DNA from: an uncultured Gammaproteobacteria bacterium
GTDB taxonomy: Bacteria > Patescibacteriota > Microgenomatia > Levybacterales > UBA12049
Assembly (NCBI GenBank): GCA_964515545.1
Contig: CAZERI010000001.1
Coordinates: 2,803 to 66,802 of the forward strand
Direction of reading: 5' to 3'
DNA: 64,000 nt
Positions 10,108 to 39,885 of the stretch are shown piece by piece; position 1 is the stretch's first letter, and every line of letters starts with the position of its first letter. The notes beneath the pieces were generated by a model. It made no database searches. It saw only the letters and a program-made list of their open reading frames with translations, and was not told the origin of the DNA. A program made the position numbers and the translations under genes.

Positions 10108-12465
10108 CTATAATCTTGCTCTTTCGGAGATTTCTGCTTCGACTACTTGGACATTACGTCCATACTTCAGACGAGACAATTCTTTAACCAGCTCTGCCAC
10201 CCGCGGATCCTTCTGGGCTGCTTCAGCTGCAATGTCTTTAGTCGTATCAAGCGAGAATGGTGGTACAGGCTCTCCTCCAACAATTGTTCTCATATAGGCA
10301 TTGAAGCGATCAATATTAATAAGATCTGCCTCGCCGAAGATAGGCTGGAATTCATGAGCTAGGTAATTTGCATCTGTCACACCGACTCTAAATGAGGCTA
10401 TTGTTCCAACATTTCCAAAGATAGCATTCTTAACTTCCTCCTCCATCTGGCCTACGAACTGATTGGCAACGATTAAATTAAGGCGATACTTACGAGCCTC
10501 GGACAGAATCTGGGCGAAATCAGGCGTTGCGAAATTCTGAAATTCGTCTACATAAAGGAAAAAGTCCTTACGGTCTTCCATCGGCATATCCTGCCTACTC
10601 ATCGCAGCAACCAAGATTTTAGGAACTAGCACAAGTCCCAAAAAGCTGGAATTCTCTTCCCCAATTTTCCCTTTGGAAAGGTTAATAAGCAAAATCTTTT
10701 TTGTATCCATTGCTTCTCTGAAATTGAATGCACTCTCAGACTGGCCAATGATATTTCGGATCATTTTATTAGTAACGAACCGGCCAAACTTCGAGACGAT
10801 ATAATCAAGCACTTCTGATTTATGGAAATCTGAAGTCTGGGCAATCTGATCTGTCCAGTAACGCCTGATAACGGGATCTTCAACGCGGGGCAAGAGTTCT
10901 TGAACGAAGTTCTGATCAGTCAGAGCACGGACAACCTCCATAAAAGTAGCTCCTGGCTGATACATACAGGTTAGCATCGCATTACGCACTGCATGCTCAA
11001 AACGGGGACCGATAATTCCTGTCTTATTAGGGTCAAACAGCTTATACATCAGCCCTATCACTGAGGTAACAACCAAATGCTTCTGCTGCTCACTATGTGC
11101 TTCAAGCATATTAAAGCCTAAAGGCTGATCAAGATCTGATGGATCAAAAAGGATGACGTCCTCTGCTCTTTCAGGTGGCATAAGTTGAAGAATATCCTCG
11201 ATTAAGTCACCATGCGGATCAATTACGGCTAATCCTTGGCCATTTTTTATATCTTGGGTGATCATTTGTTTGAGAAATTCTGACTTTCCCGTACCTGTCT
11301 TGCCGATAATATACATATGCCTCTGTCTGTCTGAAGGACTGATAAAGACCGGCTTAGTCAAACCCCTAAAGACACTCTTCCCTAAATACAGTCCCTCAGT
11401 CGGAAGATTAGCAGGAGCCGGAGCTCTCTTTGAATTTACCCAATGAATTCCCGGAGTCTGAACACTCTTATTAGGGAAATGAAAGATAGTTGCCAGTTCA
11501 TCACTGGAGAGAACCGAAGTCTGCCCTCGCAGTGGAAAGTAACGATAAATAAAATCTGTGACAAAAAGGCCTTTAAACCAATGCCTGTTTTTATAAAATT
11601 TATTTACACCAGCATATTGGCCAAATGCATTAACCATATTGGTTAAATGCGCCTCCGCTGCTTCTTTTGTGCTTGAGGAAACGACGATACGGATTACTGT
11701 ATGGAAGCCAGGCTTACTCAACTTATTCTCAATCGCTTCTAATTCTTTTGCGTCTGAGGCATACGTTGCTTTTTCTGGATTGGACTCTGTTTTCTTTGTA
11801 TGAGAAAGGTATTCTCTCCCTTCGTGTTTCCAATGATTTCCAGCAGGTTCAATAAGCATTTGAATCGCAGCTCCCTCTCCTTCCCCCATCTTGGCAAGAA
11901 TTGAAGTTAAAGAGGCCATCCCATCAACTGCCAAATCTTTAAAAACCCGAATAGGCTTATACTCGCTTTCTTTAAGAGCCAATGAGGCAAAAGCCACCTT
12001 ACCTGTCTCAGAGAAGATATTGTACTCCCCTGCTATGGTATTGCCATCTTTTTGCTTGGCTGCCGGATCATTAACCTGAACAATTTCTGCATCGGGATAT
12101 GCTCCATTAATCTGTTTTTCCACAAAGTCCCTGATAGAGGCTGGAACATTGATATAAAATCTAATATCCCCCGGCATTCCGACGACCTCAAATGAAAGAT
12201 GAGTCTGATGCTTAAAATACTCTCGCTTCTTACTTTTATGGAGAGCTGCTAAACCGGCAAAAAGTTGTTCCGCTGCATCAATCTTAATTTCATTGTCCCG
12301 AGGTAGAGAAACCTGCAGAAGTACTGACGTTACAGAAATTTTCTCTCTATCTTTATTCCGAATCCATATAGTAAATACCTTAAAAAAACCAATACAAAAA
12401 AGAACTGTAAAGATAGTCCCAAAGACGATACTCATAAAAGCTGTTAATAATGATTGTGTATCCAT
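10108..12465 (-). CDS. type IV secretion coupling protein (VirD4/TraG/TraD-like T4CP ATPase)
   Basis: N-terminal TM segments, Walker A GKTGTGKS, DPHGD and Walker B VDEFQNF. Overall TraG/TrwB-like architecture, 785 aa. Its stop abuts the tRNA at 10106. Confidence 0.85.
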   Translation of the reverse strand: MDTQSLLTAFMSIVFGTIFTVLFCIGFFKVFTIWIRNKDREKISVTSVLLQVSLPRDNEIKIDAAEQLFAGLAALHKSKKREYFKHQTHLSFEVVGMPGDIRFYINVPASIRDFVEKQINGAYPDAEIVQVNDPAAKQKDGNTIAGEYNIFSETGKVAFASLALKESEYKPIRVFKDLAVDGMASLTSILAKMGEGEGAAIQMLIEPAGNHWKHEGREYLSHTKKTESNPEKATYASDAKELEAIENKLSKPGFHTVIRIVVSSSTKEAAEAHLTNMVNAFGQYAGVNKFYKNRHWFKGLFVTDFIYRYFPLRGQTSVLSSDELATIFHFPNKSVQTPGIHWVNSKRAPAPANLPTEGLYLGKSVFRGLTKPVFISPSDRQRHMYIIGKTGTGKSEFLKQMITQDIKNGQGLAVIDPHGDLIEDILQLMPPERAEDVILFDPSDLDQPLGFNMLEAHSEQQKHLVVTSVIGLMYKLFDPNKTGIIGPRFEHAVRNAMLTCMYQPGATFMEVVRALTDQNFVQELLPRVEDPVIRRYWTDQIAQTSDFHKSEVLDYIVSKFGRFVTNKMIRNIIGQSESAFNFREAMDTKKILLINLSKGKIGEENSSFLGLVLVPKILVAAMSRQDMPMEDRKDFFLYVDEFQNFATPDFAQILSEARKYRLNLIVANQFVGQMEEEVKNAIFGNVGTIASFRVGVTDANYLAHEFQPIFGEADLINIDRFNAYMRTIVGGEPVPPFSLDTTKDIAAEAAQKDPRVAELVKELSRLKYGRNVQVVEAEISERARL

Positions 12466-12467
12466 AC

Positions 12468-12992
12468 TTATTTAGCTATTCCTTGAATTTTCTTGAGAAG
12501 ATACGCTGTGAGCGCTGCCAGCCAGTGCTTGGACTCAGTGATACTAGTCTTTTTTTCGATCTCCTTTGCCTCCAGAGGTGTGTAAGGGAGCTGAACTGTC
12601 GGCTGAGTGGGTATCGTAAGAGGTGTTGCTTCTTTCGCATGCTGGATACCGACTGCTTGATGCTCCTGAGTTAATTGGGGCTGTTCTTTGTTAGGAGCTA
12701 CTTCTACCCCAGCCTCTGCCACCTCCGGAGGAATTTGAGGCGTTACTTCACTCGGTCGGACATATTCAGAAACTGGAGCTTGCAGGATAGGCCCTGCCTC
12801 TTTATGCGGTCCGCTTATCGGATTTTGGGGCTGAGCTATTGGCTTTTGAGCAAATGGCGGAGTACTAGAGGGAACTTTTGGCTCACTCATTAAATTAGGA
12901 TCCATCGTCAACGGCTGCTGAGACACAGGAACAGGCGGAGGAGGAGCCACTTGAGAGGAGGTCTGGGCTGAAGGCTGCTGGGAATTATCCAT
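12468..12992 (-). CDS. Pro/Gln-rich hypothetical protein, translationally coupled to the T4CP gene
   Basis: Low-complexity APPPPVPVSQQP region. Its stop is 2 nt before the T4CP start codon, so they share an operon. Confidence 0.45.
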   Translation of the reverse strand: MDNSQQPSAQTSSQVAPPPPVPVSQQPLTMDPNLMSEPKVPSSTPPFAQKPIAQPQNPISGPHKEAGPILQAPVSEYVRPSEVTPQIPPEVAEAGVEVAPNKEQPQLTQEHQAVGIQHAKEATPLTIPTQPTVQLPYTPLEAKEIEKKTSITESKHWLAALTAYLLKKIQGIAK

Positions 12993-13051
12993 AATAATTA
13001 AATCTTAGCATGAATTACCAAATCAAACAAACCAAACTAGCTTCAACTCTG

Positions 13052-13213
13052 CTATTTTTTATATCTATCATCAGGTGAATTACCATAGGGGCAATTCTTA
13101 CACATACTGCCACAGCAGTATCCCCTCTTCAGATGATACTCTCTGGTAAAAACAATCTTCCCATTTTGATCAACTGAGAAATCTTCATTTTCTTTTGGTA
13201 CACTATCGCTCAT
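13052..13213 (-). CDS. small Cys-rich protein (53 aa), hypothetical
   Basis: Manual translation: MSDSVPKENEDFSVDQNGKIVFTREYHLKRGYCCGSMCKNCPYGNSPDDRYKK, with a YCCxxxCxxCPY cysteine cluster. It overlaps the upstream gene by 11 nt (coupled). It is below the ORF-track size cutoff. Confidence 0.3.
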   Translation of the reverse strand: MSDSVPKENEDFSVDQNGKIVFTREYHLKRGYCCGSMCKNCPYGNSPDDRYKK

Positions 13214-14576
13214 TTTTCTCCTCTGTCTCACGTGGACTGAAAAGGGTTACCAGAATTCCTTTTTCCAAAGATTTATTGGTAGTCTTTTTTTCTTCCTGAC
13301 TTTTGTCATTCATTTTTTCTTCCTGCATTTTTTTTAGACGCTTTTTACGCAACTCATCCTCTGATAACTCATCACAGCGAACAGAAGTACTGCACTTCAT
13401 ACATTGTTCTAAGTATCCCTCTCGAGGACGTTTATTGACATATCTACAGGTAGGACAGGCAAAAAAGAGAGAACCCTTAGAATCAGATTCTTCCTGATTC
13501 ATTGAGGAAAAATCTACCACACCAAAGGGTGAGTTATTACCAGATCTGACTGCAAAACCACTTGAGAAGCCACAACCTGTACTAACAGCTCTCACTGGCT
13601 GAGTACCTAGTACTGCCATCTGTGCCAGTGTTGCTATCCTATCCTGCTGCCAGTCAGCAAAGTATGTCCCGTCTTGGAGAGAATCTACTACTTCATCAGC
13701 TTTATTGACAATGGCGTTATATGCCTTTTTCAGAAGCTCATGGACTTTAGGCGCATTTTCAACGATAAGGAGGTATCGTTTGATGTAAGGCATACATTCT
13801 TGTTTAACAATTTCAAATGCTTCTTCACTCAAGCTGCTATCCAGATCCCGATATAAAAATTGCTGTAATTCTTCAAGAGAAGTAACAAAGCTCTCTCCCG
13901 GACGGAGTTCTACAGGATGAGATAGTAATTCAATATCATCAGGATTATCTGATAGTTCATAGTCCGGCTTGAGAAGCTTAATATTCTCTATAGTCTCCTC
14001 ACGTGTCAGGCCCGACATCGCACGGAGGACCACAATCTCGTTCTCTGACTGCTTATACTGCATATCAATAAAATTATGGCCATATATTGATTGCTCCTCA
14101 AGAGGTGTCTCCTCTGGCAGGTATTCATTACCAGGCCGTGAAGCACAGAACATTAATGTTCCAATAGGAGCCTGACTCATGGCATCCTGAATTTTTTGCT
14201 GGCCTACTATCTCAGCTTGTTCCCGTAATTGATCATGAGGCGATGATCCTTGTTCAAGGCGAGCTATCCTTCCTCGTTCATACCATTCCAAAAGAGGTTT
14301 CTTCTGGCTGCTATCGCGCATAATGCCGTCTTCATCAATAAGATCAATGCGTCGCGATACCGCTGCATTAAGCCTCTCACCAAGCATTGTAACGAGGTTA
14401 AATTCAATCGTTCCATTAAGCCCTTCTAAGCGTCTTGTATATTCATCAGGCTCGGCAAAACGGAGGTGCTGCAGTCTTGTATAAGCATCAACATCAAACT
14501 GAGGATCATACGTCAACTGCTTAGTCTCATGTAATGGCTGAAAGCCTTCAAGTGGTAGTACAAATTCTGCGCTCAT
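13203..14576 (-). CDS. uncharacterised cytoplasmic protein with C-terminal zinc ribbon; first gene downstream of a predicted cobalamin riboswitch
   Basis: 457 aa from the second Met (MSAEFVLPL...). No TM segment. C-terminal CPTCRYV...CMKCSTSVRC. An SD-containing hairpin plus U6 sits immediately 5' of this ATG. The longer ORF start at 14606 would lie inside the terminator hairpin. Confidence 0.65.
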   Translation of the reverse strand: MSAEFVLPLEGFQPLHETKQLTYDPQFDVDAYTRLQHLRFAEPDEYTRRLEGLNGTIEFNLVTMLGERLNAAVSRRIDLIDEDGIMRDSSQKKPLLEWYERGRIARLEQGSSPHDQLREQAEIVGQQKIQDAMSQAPIGTLMFCASRPGNEYLPEETPLEEQSIYGHNFIDMQYKQSENEIVVLRAMSGLTREETIENIKLLKPDYELSDNPDDIELLSHPVELRPGESFVTSLEELQQFLYRDLDSSLSEEAFEIVKQECMPYIKRYLLIVENAPKVHELLKKAYNAIVNKADEVVDSLQDGTYFADWQQDRIATLAQMAVLGTQPVRAVSTGCGFSSGFAVRSGNNSPFGVVDFSSMNQEESDSKGSLFFACPTCRYVNKRPREGYLEQCMKCSTSVRCDELSEDELRKKRLKKMQEEKMNDKSQEEKKTTNKSLEKGILVTLFSPRETEEKNER

Positions 14577-14757
14577 AAAAAAACTCCTCTTCCGAGAGGA
14601 GTACATGCTTGCACTTCTGCTCGGAAGTCCGCTCCGTCATCTGACGGGTGGCGGATTGGGGATCTGACTTTAGCCTTCGATTTACTCAGGCTATCCTGAG
14701 CGTGTCGAAGGATTACAGTTGCGGCACAGTACCGGAATTTCACCAGTTTCACCCGTT
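14577..14757 (-). promoter_or_regulatory. cobalamin (B12) riboswitch candidate with terminator/SD-sequestering expression platform
   Basis: Minus-strand read GGGTGAAACTGGTGAAATTCCGGTACTGTGCCGCAACTGTAA matches the conserved cobalamin-riboswitch core as I recall it (GGTGnAAnTCC...CCGCnACTGTnA). Then a B12-box-like AGTCAGA...CCGCC. It ends with CTCCTCT-CGGA-AGAGGAG plus TTTTTT directly followed by ATG. Confidence 0.55.
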
Positions 14758-14759
14758 AT

Positions 14760-15299
14760 TTATTGTTGTGACCAGATTGTCTCTTTTTTCTTTTCCTTAT
14801 GATTAACAAAACGAGCCATAGTAAAGAGGAGGTCTGACAAGCGATTAATGTATGTAACTACGTACTGATCGAGATCTGCCTGCTGCATTAATGCCACCAA
14901 TCTTCTTTCAGATCGTCTACAAACAGTTCGTGCCTGGTGGAGACTCGCACCTACTCTTCCTCCTCCTGGCAAAATAAAATTATGCAGCTCAGGCATCTGA
15001 GATGTCATAGCATCAATAGCTTTCTCAAACTCAGTGATACGCTCTTCCAGGCGTTTTATTGGCGGAGATGCAGGGTTGGCTAAATACGATCCTATATCAA
15101 ATAGATCGTGCTGAATTTTCTCAAGTTCTTTGGCTAATTTTATGTGTCTTGTCTCGATGGTAGCAACAACTATCCCTACTAAACTATTTAATTCATCAAT
15201 TGTGCCATAGGTATCTACTCTTAGATCTGACTTGAGGACGCGCTGTCCGCCAAATAATGATGTCTTACCACGATCTCCAGTACGAGTATAAATTGGCAT
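14760..15299 (-). CDS. ATP:cob(I)alamin adenosyltransferase, PduO-type
   Basis: N-terminal MPIYTRTGDRGKTSL is the TRTGDxGxTSL PduO/MMAB signature. About 180 aa. Confidence 0.85.
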   Translation of the reverse strand: MPIYTRTGDRGKTSLFGGQRVLKSDLRVDTYGTIDELNSLVGIVVATIETRHIKLAKELEKIQHDLFDIGSYLANPASPPIKRLEERITEFEKAIDAMTSQMPELHNFILPGGGRVGASLHQARTVCRRSERRLVALMQQADLDQYVVTYINRLSDLLFTMARFVNHKEKKKETIWSQQ

Positions 15300-15841
15300 T
15301 ATTGTCTCTTCGCCAACGCAGGCTGCCTCCTCCTAATAAGGTATTCCAGGAATTCAAATAATAAAATAAAACTTGTGGTATAAAGAAGATCTCCAGAAAT
15401 TGTATTTTTAAAAAACGGTAACGCCATAGCAAAACATTCCAAAAGCCCTTTAAGATCTTTTGAGTACATATGTCCTACCAGCCATACTCCAAAATTCGTA
15501 ATAAGAAAGAATAGAACTGAGGCCAGAAGGGTTACGCTAAGAATCCTTCCTGCTGTTTTCTGTTTACGTGCCCAAAGTCCTAATAGACCTGACAGAATAA
15601 AACTCCCATAGACGAAAAATATCGTATCGTGAAAGCCGAGGAAAAAATCTGAAATGATCATAATAGTAAGAGGAACAATAAGTGCATATTTTTTATCCAG
15701 GTATAATCCTCCAAAAAGAGCCAGGGCTGTAATTGGCGCGACATTGGGCATGTGAGGTAAAAGGCGCATCAAAACACCAAAAACAATTATGAAGGTGGGA
15801 AGGAATACTCTATCTCGCATTAGTAAGTCTCTATCCTCCAT
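15299..15841 (-). CDS. polytopic membrane protein, ECF-transporter S-component-like (cobalamin-related by context)
   Basis: 180 aa with 5-6 hydrophobic helices (FLPTFIIVFGVLMRLL...ITALALFGGLYL...). Its stop overlaps the PduO start. It shares an operon with the DUF4430 protein behind a B12 riboswitch. The functional call is inference. Confidence 0.5.
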   Translation of the reverse strand: MEDRDLLMRDRVFLPTFIIVFGVLMRLLPHMPNVAPITALALFGGLYLDKKYALIVPLTIMIISDFFLGFHDTIFFVYGSFILSGLLGLWARKQKTAGRILSVTLLASVLFFLITNFGVWLVGHMYSKDLKGLLECFAMALPFFKNTISGDLLYTTSFILLFEFLEYLIRRRQPALAKRQ

Positions 15842-16233
15842 TCAATCTGGTCACTATCCTTTGTCAGATAATCTGCCGGACCAACTTCTGCCATCTTACC
15901 ATTAACAAAAAATGACCAGTATTCTTTGTTACTCGCATCTGCCTTGCGTTTATTAATAGCTGTTACCAATCCTGTGGAATTCTGCTCTACTGATGTCTGC
16001 TGCTTTAATAATGTCAGCGCATCAACACCTTCCTTACCTGAATATCTAAAAATGTCTGCTGCAACTTTATCATGATTTTGCTGCAGTGTAGGGGTAGGAA
16101 CTCCTTGAGAAGATGTCACATGCTGACGGGACCATACCGCCCCGCCTACCATAATGACAAACAAAAACCCTATGACAAAGATAATGATAGGTGTCCTTTT
16201 AAAAGTCGGTATTCCTTTATTTTTTTCAGCCAT
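15820..16233 (-). CDS. DUF4430-type (transcobalamin-like, BtuG-like) B12-binding protein, membrane-anchored
   Basis: MAEKNKG..., one N-terminal TM, then GVDALTLLKQ...TGLVTAINKRKADASNKEYWSFFVNGKMAEVGPADYLTKDSDQIEWRIETY. This matches the DUF4430 pattern (ALxLL...fVtsI.G...YW.f.VNG...vG...y.lkdgD.I.W). Confidence 0.7.
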   Translation of the reverse strand: MAEKNKGIPTFKRTPIIIFVIGFLFVIMVGGAVWSRQHVTSSQGVPTPTLQQNHDKVAADIFRYSGKEGVDALTLLKQQTSVEQNSTGLVTAINKRKADASNKEYWSFFVNGKMAEVGPADYLTKDSDQIEWRIETY

Positions 16234-16437
16234 AAAAAATCCCTCTCTCCCGAGAAGGACGTACAAACGTTGTTTTCCTGTCTGGCGGAGCCAGACCTCG
16301 CTTCGCGAGGCTCGGGTGTTACTGAAATATTCGTTTTCTGTCTTTACAGTAGCGGCACTGAGAGGGATTTACACCCTACTTACCAAAATATTTCTCTGTT
16401 GTTTTTACACTATTTAGCCTTCTGTTACAAGAAGGAA
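16234..16437 (-). promoter_or_regulatory. cobalamin (B12) riboswitch candidate upstream of the DUF4430/S-component/PduO operon
   Basis: Minus-strand read TAGGGTGTAAATCCCTCTCAGTGCCGCTACTGTAAAG matches the same recalled core (GGTGnAAnTCC....CnGnnCCGCnACTGTnA). Downstream GGTCTGGCTCCGCCAGAC is a B12-box-like segment. It ends with CCTTCTC-GGGA-GAGAGGG hairpin plus ATTTTTT directly before ATG of the DUF4430 gene. Confidence 0.6.
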
Positions 16438-18906
16438 TTAGCACTCACTATAGCCACAGCCATAGCATTTCTTGCAACCTTCTTCGTAAGCAAAACTAGC
16501 AGCTCCACACTCAGGACAAATATCAAATAAATTAGTATTTGTCGTATTTGCCATTGTCTCAACAGGAACAGTTGCTGCAGCAAAACCTAACTGCTGACCA
16601 GCTACTTCTGGTTCATCAACTTTCGTCAGAAAATTTGCAGGCGTTGAGACAGGATGACCATTACCATTACTCACTCCATTCGCCTCCTCTGAGACAGACT
16701 CAGTAACGGACGCATCTGCCTGAATAGGAGTTACTGGCCTGTCCTCTACTTTGCCGTTCACTCTAAAATTTGCGTGCTTGGCGAGTACTTTTGCAACTGC
16801 ATCGGGAAGCGATCTAACTCTATTTTCTCCAAAGCCTACTGATCTAGCTCCACCGATACCTGTCAGCTCTGAAACAACTTCTCTCATACGCTCCCGAGCT
16901 GGTACTGGGCTATGAATCCGAAGAACAAAGGAGATCATACGGCCAAGAGCATCTGCCATTGCCATCACATCTGAACCTGCTTTTCCACCATTAACAAAGA
17001 CTTCAAAAGCATGATCCTTCTCATCATGATTGATCGTAACGTAGACATTACCGATAGGACTTTCTGCTTTATAGGTAGCTCCATGCAGAACTAATGGCCG
17101 TGAGATACGAGGCGTAGCAGGAGCAGGCACGACAGGAGTAACTTCCTTTACTTCTTCTTTCTTCTCAGGCAGGCGTTCTAGAACTCCCATACGTGACCCA
17201 TCCCGCATATAGGTAATGCCTTTAAGACCATAGTCATATGCCTTCATGTAGAGTTCTTTTACATCTTCAACTGTATGAGCTGTTGGAGCATTAACAGTCT
17301 TTGAGATTGAGGAGTCAATGTATTCCTGTGCGACAGCCTGAACTTTAACATGTTCTTCGGGTGTTAAGTCATTAGCTGAAACAAAATAATCTGGTCTTGC
17401 CTCTCCCTCATGCTCTTTTCTCCACTCATCAAAGAGAGGATGATACATAATTTCTTCTCCGCCTCTCCACTTACGTTTAAAGGTAAATTCATAAACAGGC
17501 TCAATACCTGAAGACACACCTGAGACAAGGGACGTCGTACCAGTTGGTGCAATAGTTAATAAGACTGCGTTACGAATCCCCTGATCTGCAATCTTTTTAC
17601 GAAGCTCTTTAGAAAGCTGCTTGATAAAGTAACCATTGAGGTATTTTTCCTTATCAAACATTGGGAAAGCGCCTTTCTCAGCTGCAAGATCAGAACTCGC
17701 ATCATAAGCACTATCACGAAGTGTCTTAAAGATCTTTTCAATAACAGGAAGAGATTTTTTAGATCCATAAGGGAGCTTCATCTTAATAAGAGCATCGCCA
17801 AGCCCCATGATGCCAAGACCCGTACGTCTAATATCTTTAGCGCATTTTTCATTTTCTTTAAAGAAATAATACGTCTGATCAATGACGTTATCAAGCATAC
17901 GCATTGCGACTTTTACGTCTTTACCAAAATTATCAAAGTCGAATTTCTCGTCTTTCACATATGCAGCTAAGTTCATAGCTCCTAGGTTACAAACAGCCCA
18001 CGCCCCGAGTGGCTGTTCCCCACAAGGATTGGTCGCAATGAGGCGTTCAAAATAGTTAGTATTGCTTCTCTTATTAGATCTCTCCATGAAGTGAAGTCCT
18101 GGCTCTGCACTTCTCCAAGCAGCAGTACAGATAAGGTCCCACAACTCCCGTGCTTTTACTGTCTTATAAACGACAACTTTTTTACCAAGAGCCTTCCATT
18201 TATCAATTTCTCCATCCCATTTCTCATCGTATTCAGGATCTGCAATATCAGGATAAACCAGATCCCAATCAGTATCTGCCTTAACGGCCTCCATAAATGC
18301 ATCAGAGATACAGACTGAGAGGTTGGCCCCATTAATCTTGCTAAGGTCTTCCTTAACAGTAATAAACTCCTCCACATCTGGATGCCAGTCCCAGAGCATA
18401 AGCATGGTAGCTCCCCGTCTACTTCCTCCCTGCTGAACAATGTCATGAGTTGCTACTGAAAAAAGTGTCGCCCAATTAACAGGACCCGAACTGGTTCCAT
18501 TTACTTTTTTAACGCGGGCTCCTTTGGGTCTGAGGGATGAGAGATTAAGGCCTACTCCTCCTGATCTTGCCTGAATCTCAACTAGTTGTCCCAAAGACTC
18601 TAAGATACCATGACGTGAGTCTTTAGGACTTGGAATTACAAAGCAGTTGAAGTACGTTACTTGATACTCTGTACCTGCCCCAGAAAGAATTCTGCCTGCA
18701 GGGACGAATTTAAAATCCTCCATGACACGATAGAATTCTTTTTGCCACTTCTTCTGATCAGTTTTCTTCTCTGTTGCAGCAATTCCTCTCGCAACACGTC
18801 TCCACATCTCTTCAGGAGTGCTTTCAATTCGCTCACCGTTTTTATCCTTCAAGGCATAGCGATCTAAAAATACTTTTTGTCTGATTCCGTCAAGTTGTAT
18901 AGCCAT
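16438..18906 (-). CDS. nrdJ: ribonucleotide reductase, class II (adenosylcobalamin-dependent)
   Basis: 822 aa. TNPCGEQPL active-site motif of class II RNR. C-terminal zinc ribbon CPECGAASFAYEEGCKKCYGCGYSEC. Confidence 0.93.
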   Translation of the reverse strand: MAIQLDGIRQKVFLDRYALKDKNGERIESTPEEMWRRVARGIAATEKKTDQKKWQKEFYRVMEDFKFVPAGRILSGAGTEYQVTYFNCFVIPSPKDSRHGILESLGQLVEIQARSGGVGLNLSSLRPKGARVKKVNGTSSGPVNWATLFSVATHDIVQQGGSRRGATMLMLWDWHPDVEEFITVKEDLSKINGANLSVCISDAFMEAVKADTDWDLVYPDIADPEYDEKWDGEIDKWKALGKKVVVYKTVKARELWDLICTAAWRSAEPGLHFMERSNKRSNTNYFERLIATNPCGEQPLGAWAVCNLGAMNLAAYVKDEKFDFDNFGKDVKVAMRMLDNVIDQTYYFFKENEKCAKDIRRTGLGIMGLGDALIKMKLPYGSKKSLPVIEKIFKTLRDSAYDASSDLAAEKGAFPMFDKEKYLNGYFIKQLSKELRKKIADQGIRNAVLLTIAPTGTTSLVSGVSSGIEPVYEFTFKRKWRGGEEIMYHPLFDEWRKEHEGEARPDYFVSANDLTPEEHVKVQAVAQEYIDSSISKTVNAPTAHTVEDVKELYMKAYDYGLKGITYMRDGSRMGVLERLPEKKEEVKEVTPVVPAPATPRISRPLVLHGATYKAESPIGNVYVTINHDEKDHAFEVFVNGGKAGSDVMAMADALGRMISFVLRIHSPVPARERMREVVSELTGIGGARSVGFGENRVRSLPDAVAKVLAKHANFRVNGKVEDRPVTPIQADASVTESVSEEANGVSNGNGHPVSTPANFLTKVDEPEVAGQQLGFAAATVPVETMANTTNTNLFDICPECGAASFAYEEGCKKCYGCGYSEC

Positions 18907-18937
18907 ATAAGTATAATTTGTAAATCCTAATTAGTAA

Positions 18938-19387
18938 TTAATGTATTAACTTCTTTACTTCTTTTTCAAAGTCTTCAACATCTACAAAGCGTCTAAAGAC
19001 ACTCGAAAATCTAATATATGCAATCTTATTTGTCTTTTTTAAGTGATCTGCGACTAACTGCCCAATCCGCTCACTCTGAATTTCTGCTGTATCCTCCCCC
19101 CGCAGCTCATGGATAATATCAGTTAAGATTCTTTCTATCGTATCGAGTGAAACCGTTGTCTTCTCACAAGCGCGAATTAAACCTGCCTTTAATTTCTCTC
19201 TGTTGAACTGTTCTCTCCTGCCGTCTTTTTTTATGACGTGAAGATTAACAGTCTCTATACGCTCATACGTCGTAAATCTACGTTGACACTTATGACATGC
19301 TCGGCGTCTTCTAATCGCGTCCATGTCTTCGCTATCTCTAGTCTCTACTACTTCTGATTCCTGGCTTCCGCAATAGGGACAATGCAT
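18938..19387 (-). CDS. nrdR: transcriptional repressor NrdR
   Basis: MHCPYCGSQESEVVETRDSEDMDAIRRRRACHKCQRRFTTYE zinc ribbon plus ATP-cone. Confidence 0.95.
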   Translation of the reverse strand: MHCPYCGSQESEVVETRDSEDMDAIRRRRACHKCQRRFTTYERIETVNLHVIKKDGRREQFNREKLKAGLIRACEKTTVSLDTIERILTDIIHELRGEDTAEIQSERIGQLVADHLKKTNKIAYIRFSSVFRRFVDVEDFEKEVKKLIH

Positions 19388-19406
19388 ACTCTCAATTTAG
19401 AATTTA

Positions 19407-19447
19407 AAATAGATAATTCTTAACTCTAAATTTTGAATTATCTATTT
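19407..19447 (-). promoter_or_regulatory. perfect 13-bp inverted repeat upstream of nrdR-nrdJ (operator candidate, possibly an NrdR box pair)
   Basis: AAATAGATAATTC (19407-19419) ... 15 nt ... GAATTATCTATTT (19435-19447), AT-rich, immediately 5' of the nrdR start. Confidence 0.4.
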
Positions 19448-19588
19448 AGTGTCCTAAAAGACTATATGGCTCTACCAGTATCTCTGTCAATAGAAAAAAA
19501 TACATAAAACTGCATCTAGGAAATTTCTCGGGAAACAATAGCTTCAACGCTGTAAAAACTCTTACAAATCTTTTCACAGAGGCAGAAA

Positions 19589-20137
19589 TCAATTTTTCAC
19601 CTGGACGATCTGGAGTTGATACGATTGCATACGCGCTTTAAGGCGGGAGAGTTCTTCCCGCTGATCGGGAAGAACCTTTTGAAGGTTTGTCATAAGTAAG
19701 ATATGTTTGGCAGCTGCTCGATCTAATTCATGAAGAAAATTCCCTACATCTCGTCCTTCTTTCTGGAGAGCTGAAGCATCTGTTACCGCATCGTGATAGT
19801 AGTTTTCTCCCTTTTCGATAGTGATCACTGCCAGCTTTCCATTCTTCTTATCTTCATTAACAAGAAAAATAGCTGCTTCAATTCGCTTGTCAGCTTGAAG
19901 AAGGTTAAATTGAGCTTTTTTATAGGGATCAGTTATAAGAAGTAAAATAATTTTGTCCCGCAGCATCTTTATCGGATAGAGAGGATTATTAGGAAGAATG
20001 CCAGGATATGGAAGCGGATAGTCAGAAACAGGAGCGGGAGATGGGATAATCGGGACTGTACCATCTTCCTGTGCCAAACTTTTGCCGGGAAGAAGAAATA
20101 TACTAAGTACTATAACACAAAGAAACCAGTACTTCAT
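19589..20137 (-). CDS. secreted hypothetical protein (signal peptide; DUF5667-like LPxxPLYPxK motif)
   Basis: MKYWFLCVIVLSIFLLPGKSLA signal peptide, then ILPNNPLYPIKMLRDK. Confidence 0.55.
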   Translation of the reverse strand: MKYWFLCVIVLSIFLLPGKSLAQEDGTVPIIPSPAPVSDYPLPYPGILPNNPLYPIKMLRDKIILLLITDPYKKAQFNLLQADKRIEAAIFLVNEDKKNGKLAVITIEKGENYYHDAVTDASALQKEGRDVGNFLHELDRAAAKHILLMTNLQKVLPDQREELSRLKARMQSYQLQIVQVKN

Positions 20138-21947: not shown

Positions 21948-22847
21948 GTGAATAAAAAACTAATCATCTCACTTCTCATAGTTCTTCTGCTTGTTATGGG
22001 AGTTTTTGTAGGAGTGTTTCTCTCTCAGCAAAATCAAGATATTCAGCAGCATGCCTCTACTGACACGTCATTAGTAGCAACTGTGGATAATGCACCCGTA
22101 ACCGAACAGGAAATAAAAACCGCCACACGTGAACAATATAATGATAAGGCAATTAATCAAGAAACACTCTCTGATACTCTTGATACTGTTATAGAAAATA
22201 AATTGATTGCTTCTGAGGCAAAGAAAAAAGGCATATCAGTATCAGAACAAGAAGTAGCAGAACGCGCTAAGGTTCTGGGTGGCACTGCCTCAGGGCAAGC
22301 CAGTATTAAAAATCAAGCTCGTGCTGAGATCTTAAAAGAAAAAGTCAGTCAGGTAGTAACTAAAACCCGTCAGGTAGAGTCAGTAGGGTTTTGGTTACCG
22401 CCAGCTAATTATGGGGCACCCCTTACTGCAGCTGAAGCCCAAACGGTAGCATCACAAAAGGCTCAAAAGACTGCAGTCCTCACAGAAATAAAACAAAAAT
22501 TCGATGCTAATAAAGACCCTCTCGCTATAGCTCAGGAGATTCAGAAGAAGTATCCCCTCTTTGCTCCCATCATTGCTGTCAATGGTTATGTTGTCTCCAA
22601 AACTCCAGACACTACCCTTATGACACAGCCAAAGCTCTATACCTATCAGGATGATTTTAAAACCAATACCTATCTCTCACAGATTTTTACTATGAATGAT
22701 GGCGAAGTAAACACTGTTTTAACAGACGCAAATGCTGGAGGAGTGGTCGTCAAAATAATAAATAGTAGTAATGGACAGTATGCAAGCTTTGAGGATTGGC
22801 TTGATAAAAATAAATCCTCCCGTACTAGAATAGTAAAACAACCATGA
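21948..22847 (+). CDS. secreted/membrane-anchored SurA-N-terminal-domain-like chaperone protein
   Basis: N-terminal TM/signal. SurA_N-like helical region (VATVDNAPVTEQEI...LDTVIENKLIASEAKKKGISVSEQEV). No clear PPIase domain. Confidence 0.5.
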   Translation: MNKKLIISLLIVLLLVMGVFVGVFLSQQNQDIQQHASTDTSLVATVDNAPVTEQEIKTATREQYNDKAINQETLSDTLDTVIENKLIASEAKKKGISVSEQEVAERAKVLGGTASGQASIKNQARAEILKEKVSQVVTKTRQVESVGFWLPPANYGAPLTAAEAQTVASQKAQKTAVLTEIKQKFDANKDPLAIAQEIQKKYPLFAPIIAVNGYVVSKTPDTTLMTQPKLYTYQDDFKTNTYLSQIFTMNDGEVNTVLTDANAGGVVVKIINSSNGQYASFEDWLDKNKSSRTRIVKQP

Positions 22848-23563
22848 AATATATAGCGCTTATACTAGTTTTTGTTTCACTCTTCTTTCCTACAACATCT
22901 GTAGATGCTGCCGGAAGTAATCCTTATTGTGTAGGAATGTCCGGAAAGTTTACTGCGACAAATTGGCCAGGTGGCTCAATCATGGTTGCCTGTGCAGGAG
23001 ATACTGGTACGGCTGGCTGTCGAGGAGAGATAGCTACGATTAAACCTGGAGAGTCGTTTGACTTTAATAATTGCACCTGCCCTCCTTATGCAAGTGAAAG
23101 TATTTTTGGAAAATCTGGATGTCTAGTCATCGGAAAAAATCTTAAGATAACCCAACTCAGCAATGGGAATCGTCCAGTACAAGGAGACACTTCTCTTCCT
23201 GAAGGATGTACCCTCAACAAGCCTCAACCAGTTGCGTGTGGAGTAAATGGAGATGTTATCAATGCTCCATTTAGCATCACCTGTACAGCACCTTCGCCGA
23301 CACCTACTCCAAGCCCAACTCCAACACCCACCAGTACTCCTACGCCTACCCCAAGCCCGACCCCAACACCATCGCCAACTTTAACGCCAACACCTACTCC
23401 TACACCATCTTCCTGCCCAATACCAGGAGTCGTCCCTAATATCCATATCACTTGCCCTAACTGCACAGCTGCAGATGCAACTCCAACACCCACCAGTACT
23501 CCTACACCTACTCCACTCATTGTCTCTCCTACAATAACCGTAGTTCCAACCCTGACGCCATGA
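22844..23563 (+). CDS. secreted Cys-rich protein with Pro/Thr-rich repeat tail
   Basis: Signal peptide, 14 Cys, and a (TPTPSP)n low-complexity tail. Start overlaps the upstream stop (coupled). Confidence 0.6.
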   Translation: MKYIALILVFVSLFFPTTSVDAAGSNPYCVGMSGKFTATNWPGGSIMVACAGDTGTAGCRGEIATIKPGESFDFNNCTCPPYASESIFGKSGCLVIGKNLKITQLSNGNRPVQGDTSLPEGCTLNKPQPVACGVNGDVINAPFSITCTAPSPTPTPSPTPTPTSTPTPTPSPTPTPSPTLTPTPTPTPSSCPIPGVVPNIHITCPNCTAADATPTPTSTPTPTPLIVSPTITVVPTLTP

Positions 23564-23564
23564 T

Positions 23565-25022
23565 ATGAAAGCACATAAAAAAGTAATTATCGGCTTTATC
23601 ATCACTATCATCCTTCTTATCGGAGCATTTGTCGCGTACTATCTCTCTCAAAAGCCACAGGAAGTTCGTCAGCACGCTGCCGAAAAACCATTTGGTAAGG
23701 CTGCAGTCTTTTCAGCAACTAACTCTGCTACTGAACCTGTAACAACAGTTAATACCGTGACTCATGACAAGGATTTCACTCTTGAATTTTGGGTCAACCC
23801 AACAGGAGTTCGTGGTCCTGATGGGAATAATTTCATGCCTTTTGTGGAGACAGCTACGCCACATAATTCTTCTAGCTGTGTCGATCAATTTGTCATCGGT
23901 GGAGAACGGAATACAGAAACTAATACCTATTCTGTCCATGCGAGTACTTTCCCTCCAAGTGGTAGTAATGTTCTGCTTACTTCAGACTCCAGTCCAATCA
24001 GGTTGAACGAATGGGCCCATGTCGCTTTTAGCATTAATAATACGACCCATGTCGCCAAATTATTTGTTAATGGCAAACAAATGGACGCAGGAGCAATTCC
24101 TCAGACATTTTGTAGTGATCTCACGTATAGATTGGGCTATGACATAGCAGACGATGGCGATAATTCTCCTATAAACTATGTCGGACAGATGGATGAGATG
24201 AGGCTCTCAGACACTATTCGTTATGATTCTGATTTCACACCAAGTAATACACCCTTTCTCCCTGATTCTCAGACATTAGGTCTCTGGCACTTTGACGGTA
24301 ACCTCAACAATGAGTTTGATAATCAGCCAATGAATGATCCTACTAATGCGGTTACCTATACTGATTCTACCCTACCAGTGACTGCAACTCCTCCAGCTTG
24401 TCAAGCCAACATTTCAACCTGTTCCTGGGATGCAGTCGATACAGCAGTTTCCTACCACTATAAAATCACCCAAATAATAACTGATGATGATGCAATCCCT
24501 ACTCCAGGTGCAAATATCATTAAAGAAGGCGATATCCAGTCACCTGGAACTAGCGTCACATTTGTTTCAGAAGCAAATGCTACTTATACTTGTGAGGTAG
24601 CAGCAACAAATGCTTGCGGTACTGGAGAAAAAGCTTCAGCAACAGCAACTTGTGCTGTACCTACTGCTACTCCAACACCTACTCCTACCACTACTCCTAT
24701 TCCTTCTGCAACGCCTACCTCCAGTCCAACCCCAACACCCACCAGTACTCCTACACCAACGCCTGTTCCATCTGCTACTCCAACACCTACCAAACCTCCT
24801 GTTATTCCTACCTCTACAGTAGTCCCACCTACACCAACAACTGTCGTACCAACTGCAACTCCTGTGCCACCAACCGCAACAGCTGTGGTACCAACAAACA
24901 CAGTAGGGCCTAATACCCCAACGCCTACCTTACCAAGTCCTGGAAGTGCTGTTCAGACCCTCACCATTGCAGGAGGAATTATCTTTACTATTGTTGGAGC
25001 GTTAATCCTCTTTATTCTCTAG
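23565..25022 (+). CDS. surface protein with LamG/concanavalin-A-like lectin domain, PT-rich stalk and C-terminal TM anchor
   Basis: FTLEFWVNPTG ... WAHVAFSINNTTHVAKLFVNGKQ ... GQMDEMRLSDTIRY, typical of a LamG fold. Long PT repeat. C-terminal LTIAGGIIFTIVGALILFIL. Confidence 0.7.
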   Translation: MKAHKKVIIGFIITIILLIGAFVAYYLSQKPQEVRQHAAEKPFGKAAVFSATNSATEPVTTVNTVTHDKDFTLEFWVNPTGVRGPDGNNFMPFVETATPHNSSSCVDQFVIGGERNTETNTYSVHASTFPPSGSNVLLTSDSSPIRLNEWAHVAFSINNTTHVAKLFVNGKQMDAGAIPQTFCSDLTYRLGYDIADDGDNSPINYVGQMDEMRLSDTIRYDSDFTPSNTPFLPDSQTLGLWHFDGNLNNEFDNQPMNDPTNAVTYTDSTLPVTATPPACQANISTCSWDAVDTAVSYHYKITQIITDDDAIPTPGANIIKEGDIQSPGTSVTFVSEANATYTCEVAATNACGTGEKASATATCAVPTATPTPTPTTTPIPSATPTSSPTPTPTSTPTPTPVPSATPTPTKPPVIPTSTVVPPTPTTVVPTATPVPPTATAVVPTNTVGPNTPTPTLPSPGSAVQTLTIAGGIIFTIVGALILFIL

Positions 25023-39465: not shown

Positions 39466-39885
39466 GGGGATGAACTGATTCGACGAGATCTGTACTTTAA
39501 AAACTGCAAGCCGACATTGATTAGCTGTCGTAAAACATGATCAAAAAAATAAATGCTAAAAATAGCATTGAAGCTTTAAGAGCTGAGAAGGATGCGATTC
39601 TCGCAGAACTTCAATCTCTTACTGCTCCTCGCGCTTACGCTTTCGCAGCTTAAGAGCATATGAGGTGTCTTTCTGGTCTTTCTTAACGGGATCTTAAAGG
39701 CATAATATAAGTTGAGTGATGTCATAAAGTTTGGTTTGGCTTTGTGACTAATCTTAAGCAAACCTAGATGAAGTTATACCTGTTCGTTGGTTACGGCTTC
39801 ACCACACTTATGAACGGACTACGCTTGTAGATGTTTTTAATTTACTTTTTCGGACTCCGGATCACACCCGGACATCTCCACACCA
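39466..39885 (+). ncRNA. ssrA: tmRNA (SsrA)
   Basis: 5' GGGGATGAACTGATTCGACG consensus. Internal tag reading frame ...GCTCCTCGCGCTTACGCTTTCGCAGCTTAA (...APRAYAFAA*, stop at 39651-39653). 3' tRNA-like end with T-arm TCCGG-ATCACAC-CCGGA and acceptor CATCTCC pairing GGGGATG, then ACCA. Confidence 0.85.

Follow-up and report, generated by a model that had tools for sequence, protein, structure and literature searches.

The stretch of DNA considered here (the window, 64,000 nucleotides in full) covers positions 2,803 to 66,802 of the forward strand of contig CAZERI010000001.1 (NCBI GenBank assembly GCA_964515545.1), filed under an uncultured Gammaproteobacteria bacterium with a GTDB lineage in the Levybacterales of the Patescibacteriota. 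Its segment 13000-19500 holds a set of corrinoid genes together with two cobalamin riboswitch-like elements, RS1 and RS2, all of them on the minus strand. Among these genes is one for a six-helix membrane protein of the family DUF6580, for which the evidence assembled below suggests a role in the import of vitamin B12. In the direction of transcription, and in window coordinates, the locus comprises:

19461..19490, minus strand: sigma-70-like promoter TTGACA-18-TATAGT upstream of nrdR, a consensus match only (11/12 matches, top site within 12900..19700)
19407..19447, minus strand: 13-bp perfect inverted repeat, AAATAGATAATTC / GAATTATCTATTT, arms 15 nt apart, located after the -10 hexamer and ahead of the nrdR ATG (seen in the letters themselves)
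18938..19387, minus strand: nrdR, ribonucleotide reductase gene repressor with zinc ribbon and ATP-cone (TIGR00244, 189.8 bits vs a cut-off of 124.65; PF22811, PF03477)
16438..18906, minus strand: nrdJ, class II (adenosylcobalamin-dependent) ribonucleotide reductase (TIGR02504, 595.9 bits vs a cut-off of 399.95; PF02867, PF00317, PF12637)
16324..16397, minus strand: RS1, short cobalamin aptamer of the Cbl-II/AdoCbl-II type, without P6 extension (RF01689; covariance model R1)
16233..16316, minus strand: RS1 expression platform, with a CCCGAG motif (16316..16311), a terminator hairpin (16260..16239) and a U-run ending at the ATG
15820..16233, minus strand: membrane-anchored DUF4430 protein, 137 amino acids (PF14478, 50.5 bits vs a cut-off of 23.8)
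15299..15841, minus strand: DUF6580 six-helix membrane protein, 180 amino acids from the first ATG (PF20221, 167 bits)
14760..15299, minus strand: pduO-type ATP:cob(I)alamin adenosyltransferase (TIGR00636, 197.1 bits vs 108.45; PF01923, 203.8 bits vs 24)
14651..14791, minus strand: RS2, second cobalamin aptamer, with a long P6 extension hairpin, beginning within the last pduO codons (RF00174; covariance model R1)
14577..14650, minus strand: RS2 expression platform, with CUUCCGAG (14627..14620), a terminator hairpin (14602..14583) and then U7 directly before the ATG at 14576
13203..14576, minus strand: X467, a 457-amino-acid cytoplasmic protein under RS2, without Pfam or NCBIfam family
13052..13231, minus strand: Cys-rich DUF5522 open reading frame of 59 amino acids overlapping the 3' end of X467 (PF17653, 63.9 bits)

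The five genes that the original prediction had named from the letters of the DNA (NrdR, NrdJ, a DUF4430 protein, a membrane protein and PduO) are thus all present, and all on the minus strand. By its equivalog model NrdJ is a class II ribonucleotide reductase, with cofactor use as a prediction; it also passes the class I model TIGR02506, at a lower 374.8 bits, and ends in a TSCPD domain and a Cys-rich tail. The inverted repeat ahead of nrdR may serve as an operator or form a hairpin in the 5' untranslated region, and bears no obvious resemblance to what we take to be the NrdR-box consensus. The true start of the DUF4430 gene is the ATG at 16233 and not a TTG further upstream. For DUF6580, the likely start is Met8 at 15820, giving a protein of 173 amino acids, and the nearest database copy (P0001, 173 amino acids) is likewise called from Met8. 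This start overlaps the DUF4430 stop as TAATG, and the pduO start overlaps the DUF6580 stop in the same manner; because of these overlaps the three genes are translationally coupled. The best matches come from Levybacteria and further Microgenomates within the Patescibacteria, which makes the source of the window a bacterium of the candidate phyla radiation.

RS1 and RS2 were compared with the Rfam models in E-value searches of 5.4 kb (14400-19800). RS1 matches RF01689 at 16394..16324 with 36.1 bits (gathering score 36.5, E 6.4e-6), which falls inside the interval 16437-16234 where the original prediction had seen a riboswitch candidate, and contains the core that it quoted. RS2 matches RF00174 at 14791..14672 with 31.1 bits (gathering score 31.5, E 3.7e-5). 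With a simple core pattern, about 20 related loci prove to have an element of this kind as well, either upstream of DUF6580 or following pduO. Seventeen orthologous elements were aligned, and the helices of RF01689 were imposed by hand and then tested. RNAalifold, applied to the first, untrimmed alignment, recovered helix P4 and no other helix. The imposed helices pair in 93.3% of the cells, and sliding the partners lowers this to 32-45%. Covariation is seen in P3, P4 and P5; compensatory changes occur in 8 of 15 base pairs, and the observed covariation score was reached by 0/500 shuffles. It is because of these compensatory changes in the orthologous copies that RS1 can be taken as real despite its sub-threshold score. 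A covariance model (R1) built from the 17 elements gives 74.4 bits for RS1, itself a member of the seed, and 55.5 bits for RS2, which lies outside the seed (E 1e-14, at 14766..14651); these are its only two matches in the 64-kb window. Orthologues of RS2 follow pduO in related loci (L008, L010, L019, L020, L021, L029, L033, L072, L081 and L082). As judged from sequence, then, RS1 and RS2 are cobalamin riboswitch-like aptamers backed by covariation, with a predicted response to the ligand.

The expression platforms of the two elements share their layout, in which a conserved CCGAG motif is followed by a G+C-rich hairpin and by a U-run that ends at the start codon. In that of RS1, the CCCGAG motif can pair with CUCGGG of the terminator, an alternative seen in minimum-free-energy folds, and the 3' arm of the terminator is Shine-Dalgarno-like (GAGAGGGA). 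In that of RS2, CUUCCGAG can pair with CUCGGAAG of the terminator, and the minimum-free-energy fold is the antiterminator. Between the two platforms the pairing is preserved by a compensating change, CCCGAG:CUCGGG in RS1 and UCCGAG:CUCGGA in RS2. A terminator scan places the hairpins directly before the two start codons as the top two terminator-like hairpins of the region. An alignment of the short aptamers of candidate phyla (A2) shows a conserved CCCGAGCAGGA motif some 20-30 nt past each of them, located at 16311-16316 and 14620-14627 in the window, and in many loci this motif contains a Shine-Dalgarno sequence just before the start codon. From these features we infer that RS1 and RS2 are OFF switches acting on termination; probably they also act on translation.

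The membrane protein encoded between DUF4430 and pduO matches PF20221 (DUF6580) only, among the Pfam models at E<=0.01. Its AlphaFold2 model, built with 41 homologues, has six helices and a mean predicted local distance difference test (pLDDT) score of 90.5. The best real Foldseek matches of this model are S-components of energy-coupling factor (ECF) transporters, namely PanT, FolT, ThiT and RibU, with template modelling (TM) scores of 0.54-0.63 and probabilities of up to 0.99. The DUF6580 profile has a single match in the whole PDB (hmmsearch, E<=10), which is CbrT, chain 6fnp_A, with E 5.7e-4. Against 20 CbrT homologues, which 6FNP chain A (182 residues) matches, hhalign gives the DUF6580 alignment a probability of 95.2% and E 2.7e-8 over 161 columns with about 19% identity. 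A CbrT fragment matches PF12822 and PF07155 and not PF20221, although a few members of the two families cross-match each other's Pfam model and some CbrT homologues carry PF20221 matches. According to the model, DUF6580 has the S-component fold. The profile homology to CbrT, the separate Pfam models and the lack of a BtuM match together make it, by sequence, a sister family of CbrT that lies outside the CbrT Pfam model and outside BtuM. The earlier suggestion of an unrecognised cobalamin S-component, to be compared with the CbrT and BtuM families, is thereby supported on the CbrT side, and the presence of a riboswitch in 68/80 related loci (see below) supports it too. Of the outcomes that the original prediction had named as refuting it, neither a match to a non-B12 family nor the lack of a riboswitch was found.

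Other assignments were considered and rejected. BioY, QueT and the remaining S-component families are set aside in view of the Pfam result, which gives DUF6580 alone. Membership in BtuM is rejected since 6FFV is not matched at E<=10 and the 41-sequence DUF6580 alignment contains no conserved cysteine. The family itself is large, with 5,048 homologues passing E 1e-5 in a word-indexed search. In several loci (L032, L037, L045, L066, L067, L071) a second, short DUF6580-like open reading frame of about 105-120 amino acids directly follows DUF6580, and in others (L047, L049, L057, L080) such a frame lies on the opposite strand about 2 kb away. The loci concerned are Saccharibacteria/Berkelbacteria-like or from Roizmanbacteria, and the short frame may represent a fragment, a paralogue or part of a split gene.

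The DUF4430 protein consists of one N-terminal hydrophobic helix followed by a domain resembling the beta-domain of transcobalamin, and a hydrophobic N-terminus is found in all 37 orthologues inspected. With the protein alone as query, phmmer found no match in the PDB. When a profile is built from 30 orthologues, its only matches are the beta-domains of transcobalamin-1, transcobalamin-2 and intrinsic factor, as well as 3u7z, a small Ruminococcus protein; the best match is transcobalamin-1, with E 1.2e-4. In PDB entry 5no0, a 108-residue transcobalamin-2 chain, residues 26-105 are matched, and this isolated beta-domain, as we presume, still binds cobalamin. DUF4430 is described as the C-terminal domain of transcobalamin-type proteins (PMC4350170). 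Of the label "BtuG/transcobalamin-like" given to the protein in the original prediction, the second half therefore stands, owing to the beta-domain match, whereas the first does not, BtuG being a beta-propeller (PMC13616437). The DUF4430 protein is predicted from these similarities to be an extracytoplasmic corrinoid binder. In some related loci its place is taken by patescibacterial proteins of 450-600 amino acids that join DUF4430 to an alpha/alpha toroid resembling those of prenyltransferases and squalene cyclases (L003, L004, L009, L061, L064, L070, L072, L077). Their genes, of which L077:4307-5863 is an example, adjoin DUF6580 and lie behind a cobalamin riboswitch. Such proteins contain both domain types of eukaryotic transcobalamin, here with DUF4430 first.

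How far the arrangement extends was examined in the 80 closest DUF6580 loci, taken from one genome per species, with 41-62% identity to the window protein. They span Patescibacteria, Ignavibacteriota, Bacteroidota, Omnitrophota, Rokubacteria and Planctomycetes. When model R1 and Rfam at gathering thresholds are combined, a cobalamin riboswitch is found in 68/80 loci; in 52 of them it precedes DUF6580 on the same strand, and in 1 it is on the opposite strand. Outside the candidate phyla radiation (CPR) the Rfam scores are unambiguous, at 50-121 bits. The neighbours of DUF6580 are:

34/80 loci: DUF4430, directly upstream
34/80 loci: NrdJ
27-28/80 loci: NrdR
26/80 loci: TonB-dependent receptor
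25/80 loci: PduO
13/80 loci: CobA/BtuR adenosyltransferase
8/80 loci: DUF4430 fused to the alpha/alpha toroid domain
8/80 loci: DUF5074 (PF16819) beta-propeller, beside the TonB-dependent receptor in Bacteroidota
3/80 loci: BtuF-like PF01497 protein, directly upstream of DUF6580

PduO or CobA is a neighbour in 38/80 loci. The typical layouts, with RS for riboswitch, are:

Microgenomates: NrdR-NrdJ-RS-DUF4430-DUF6580-PduO-RS-X467
Bacteroidota: RS-DUF6580-RS-receptor-propeller
Omnitrophota: CobA-DUF6580-RS-receptor-TonB
Ignavibacteriota: RS-receptor-DUF6580

The gene order of the window is kept in about 25-34 related loci. This conservation, together with the TAATG overlaps, fits the earlier proposal of a salvage route that feeds NrdJ. 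The BtuF-like genes (L038:5004-6002, L059:4862-5890, L068:4235-5155) have no BtuC or BtuD nearby, which hints that in some Gram-negative bacteria a binding protein may pass the corrinoid on to DUF6580. One contig labelled Candidatus Nanoarchaeia (L056, DATBWR010000004.1) carries the bacterial NrdR-NrdJ-riboswitch-DUF4430-DUF6580 cluster and is probably a mis-binned Patescibacteria contig.

In the reading that we favour, and that we consider probable, the minus strand from about 19490 to 13050 forms a single operon for the use and salvage of corrinoids. The promoter upstream of nrdR would drive nrdR and nrdJ, whose product would consume adenosylcobalamin. When bound by cobalamin, RS1 would let the terminator hairpin form, the 3' arm of which is the ribosome-binding site, and so shut off DUF4430, DUF6580 and pduO. 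When these genes are on, the tethered DUF4430 domain would capture corrinoid at the cell surface, DUF6580 would topple in the manner of S-components and so bring it through the membrane, and PduO would adenosylate it and thereby trap it for use by NrdJ. RS2, with the same terminator-at-ATG layout, would gate X467 as a further salvage or processing factor, and an excess of cobalamin would close both switches. The substrate of DUF6580 would thus be a corrinoid; binding and transport of cobalamin by this protein are predicted from context, that is, from the riboswitch linkage in 68/80 loci. Transport would proceed without an ECF module, by facilitated diffusion coupled to metabolic trapping, in analogy to what has been proposed for BtuM. 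By extension, the data suggest that the whole DUF6580 family imports B12.

A number of points weigh against this reading. With Rfam at its gathering thresholds, no cobalamin riboswitch is reported anywhere in the window, RS1 and RS2 each being 0.4 bits short, and the switching mechanism, including the ligand-driven capture of the CCGAG motif, is something that we infer. The Foldseek E-values of the DUF6580 model are weak (0.25-3), although small helical bundles usually give such values. DUF6580 is directly followed by the riboswitch, ahead of the next gene, in 15 loci. The riboswitch linkage may not hold family-wide because the 80 loci are the nearest relatives of the window protein and not a random sample. 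Within the library that could be searched, literature searches on DUF6580, on BtuM- or CbrT-like proteins and on B12 salvage in candidate phyla returned no mention of the family and no prior description. Finally, the genes of group II ECF S-components are typically encoded away from the ECF module, and for this reason the absence of a module nearby does not show that DUF6580 works independently.

The last point bears on the alternative that survives best, namely that DUF6580 is an ordinary ECF-dependent S-component, a functional orthologue of CbrT that docks on an EcfAA'T module encoded elsewhere and mediates ATP-driven uptake. Besides the unlinked position of group II genes, it has in its favour the full-length homology to CbrT, which does work with an ECF module (PMC5997447). 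However, an ABC (ATP-binding cassette) ATPase motif search of the 64-kb window found none encoded, in agreement with the earlier remark that the window lacks EcfA/T genes, and across all 80 loci there are only 3 ABC-type ATPases, no BtuC-like cluster among the neighbours and no ECF module. Moreover, DUF6580 is common beside TonB-dependent receptors in Bacteroidota, Ignavibacteriota and Omnitrophota, phyla in which ECF modules are uncommon. With the alignments read by eye, nothing in the DUF6580 consensus corresponds to the Ala-x3-Ala pattern (ALLTA) in helix 1 of CbrT, and the adjacency of DUF6580 to adenosyltransferase genes mirrors that of the solitary BtuM. Because of the neighbourhoods, the phyla and the missing ALLTA pattern we lean towards ECF independence of DUF6580, and regard dependence on a distant module as possible but rather unlikely.

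Another alternative keeps DUF6580 as a carrier and changes its cargo to a B12-related small molecule: cobalt, the lower-ligand base, alpha-ribazole, or only cobinamide. Cobalamin riboswitches elsewhere also control transporters of cobalt and of precursors, and some S-components carry metals. However, the Pfam-annotated neighbour clusters of the 80 loci contain no genes for the assembly of the corrin ring or the nucleotide loop. The annotated partners of DUF6580, i.e., the transcobalamin beta-like domain, TonB-dependent receptors, adenosyltransferases and NrdJ, handle complete corrinoids, and its closest characterised relative, CbrT, transports cobalamin as well as cobinamide (PMC5997447). A different cargo is thus distinctly unlikely.

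DUF6580 could also be no carrier at all but a receptor in the membrane, or a protein that processes corrinoids, with only the fold in common with S-components. The same fold does occur in sensor domains of histidine kinases (PMC11109136), and decyanase chemistry is known for BtuM (PMC6072759). Yet DUF6580 amounts to six helices and about 173 amino acids, with no output domain, it is homologous to a proven transporter subunit, and in the Gram-negative loci it is the sole inner-membrane candidate beside the TonB-dependent receptor, all of which makes a role other than transport very improbable. That both riboswitch matches are degenerate or due to chance, with the genes after nrdJ constitutive or under NrdR only, is an idea that their scores just under the Rfam gathering level might encourage, but one that is largely refuted and has next to no probability left, given the E-values (6e-6 and 4e-5), the recurrence of both elements at orthologous positions in many loci, compensatory changes with covariation that 0/500 shuffles match, and matching terminator/antiterminator platforms at RS1 and RS2.

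RS2 and the gene that it precedes go beyond what the original prediction had covered. Neither X467 nor 10 scanned members of its family match a Pfam family, and X467 matches no NCBIfam model. A word-indexed search returned 14 homologues and a full profile search 607 representatives at E<=1e-3. The family has the invariant motifs TGCGxSGG and HNFxD and a C-terminal zinc-ribbon-like CxxC...CxxC. The AlphaFold2 model has a pLDDT of 74.6 (84-94 in the core) and, when compared with the PDB by Foldseek, no fold match (best TM score 0.14). In related loci the family is always encoded after pduO and a riboswitch; even homologues with 29-33% identity sit directly behind these two, and one of the loci with such a homologue has no DUF6580. 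From its placement under RS2 and the conservation of this position, X467 is, as far as sequence can tell, a cytoplasmic family linked to NrdJ and PduO and under repression by B12. With low confidence, we suggest that it processes or reduces corrinoids before PduO acts on them. As a B12-independent ribonucleotide reductase X467 would fit the usual regulon logic, but its model contains a small sheet and no ten-stranded barrel, and its sequence no reductase motifs, so that this identity was rejected as very unlikely. The DUF5522 frame that overlaps its end may be the last gene of the operon. In L005 and L036, too, such a frame follows the X467 homologue, and in L008 one lies downstream of it.

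A wider reading joins two claims, that DUF6580 is a widespread ECF-independent corrinoid importer and that X467 is a corrinoid-processing enzyme with a new fold. We put it forward tentatively, as a conjunction with the odds against it. The importer would be served by a tethered transcobalamin-like partner in the single-membrane bacteria of the candidate phyla, and by a TonB-dependent receptor in Bacteroidota, Ignavibacteriota and Omnitrophota. X467 would have a role like that of CblC, before PduO, and would be on only under B12 scarcity. If the wider reading were true, some of the "missing" inner-membrane transporters of B12, in bacteria unable to make the vitamin, would be explained by DUF6580. 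The inner-membrane step is unknown for many bacteria because BtuCDF is predicted in only about half of those needing external B12 (Rempel et al., PMC6072759). A B12 assignment of DUF6580 would moreover improve predictions of vitamin dependency for candidate-phyla bacteria and for several Gram-negative phyla.

Elsewhere in the window, three further features deserve a brief mention. The B12 operon is followed on the minus strand (10108-12992) by genes for a 785-amino-acid TraG/VirD4-like ATPase, the L081 orthologue of which has DUF8128 and TrwB-type matches, and for a 174-amino-acid Pro/Gln-rich protein. Their order is kept in 15-18 loci, with no evident link to B12. A tmRNA on the plus strand (39466-39883, 124 bits) has an insertion of about 60 nt beside the tag-coding region relative to the Rfam consensus. 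Also on the plus strand, 22844-25022 encodes two adjoining secreted or anchored proteins with long low-complexity Pro-Thr/Pro-Ser linkers (PTPTPSPTPT...).

Operons for B12 uptake under riboswitch control, B12 carriers of the S-component type and PduO all belong to kinds already known. New are the functional assignment of DUF6580, a family of unknown function, which we regard as well supported, its association with either a tethered transcobalamin-like domain or TonB-dependent receptors, and X467. DUF6580 would be the third type of B12 carrier with an S-component fold, beside CbrT and BtuM. The first of these, ECF-CbrT of Lactobacillus delbrueckii (6FNP), is a vitamin B12 ECF transporter that carries cobalamin and cobinamide (Santos et al. 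2018, PMC5997447). DUF6580 resembles CbrT in its S-component fold, in profile homology over the full length and in shared motif blocks: R..PNv.P where helix 1 ends, S(D/N)..LGF, and, close to the C-terminus, F...(G)(D/N)L. In contrast, CbrT belongs to PF12822 and the window protein to PF20221 only, CbrT works with EcfAA'T whereas the 80 DUF6580 loci show no such module, and the partners of DUF6580 are DUF4430, an adenosyltransferase or a TonB-dependent receptor. DUF6580 lacks ALLTA and has (near-)invariant residues of its own: His30, His71, Thr115-Asn116 and Arg145.

BtuM of Thiobacillus denitrificans (PDB 6FFV) has the S-component fold, and ECF-independent import of B12 has been proposed for it, as has metabolic trapping (Rempel et al. 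2018, PMC6072759). Its gene is found together with those for BtuB and an adenosyltransferase, and its invariant Cys80 ligates cobalt (PMC6072759). DUF6580 is likewise a small protein with this fold, and the logic of its context is the same reasoning that predicted BtuM; co-localisation of the BtuM kind is seen in the 80 loci with a TonB-dependent receptor (26) and with PduO or CobA (38). However, the two families show no detectable sequence similarity, and Cys80 is without counterpart because DUF6580 has no conserved cysteine. Furthermore, BtuM is mostly proteobacterial, whereas DUF6580 is found here in the candidate phyla radiation, Bacteroidota, Ignavibacteriota and Omnitrophota. The BtuB-BtuFCD route of E. 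coli and Bacteroides (PMC13616437) shares with the operon the sequence of riboswitch-controlled corrinoid import and subsequent adenosylation. It differs in its inner-membrane step, the operon having no BtuC or BtuD; the Gram-negative relatives pair a TonB-dependent receptor with DUF6580, sometimes with the addition of a BtuF-like PF01497 protein.

As for regulation, RS1 and RS2 have the core of RF01689 (AdoCbl-II, in clan CL00101 with RF00174), i.e., the GGUGNAANUCC hairpin, GCCGCNACUGU and AGNCAGA, with helices P3-P6. Like class II cobalamin riboswitches they lie upstream of B12 uptake genes and have a platform that combines a terminator with sequestration of the ribosome-binding site. Unlike these, they are located inside an operon, after nrdJ and pduO, and not at its 5' end, and they score just under the gathering level. 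The candidate-phyla aptamers are in addition followed by a conserved CCGAGCAGGA, which we could assign to no described element.

The likeness to transcobalamin, haptocorrin and intrinsic factor concerns their C-terminal beta-domain, which is Pfam DUF4430. The window protein differs from them in lacking an alpha/alpha-barrel domain and in having a single transmembrane helix as its tether. Human MMAB is an adenosyltransferase of the PduO type, and with its transcobalamin-like domain and its PduO the operon resembles the human route for the vitamin. This likeness makes X467 a candidate for the intermediate processing step.

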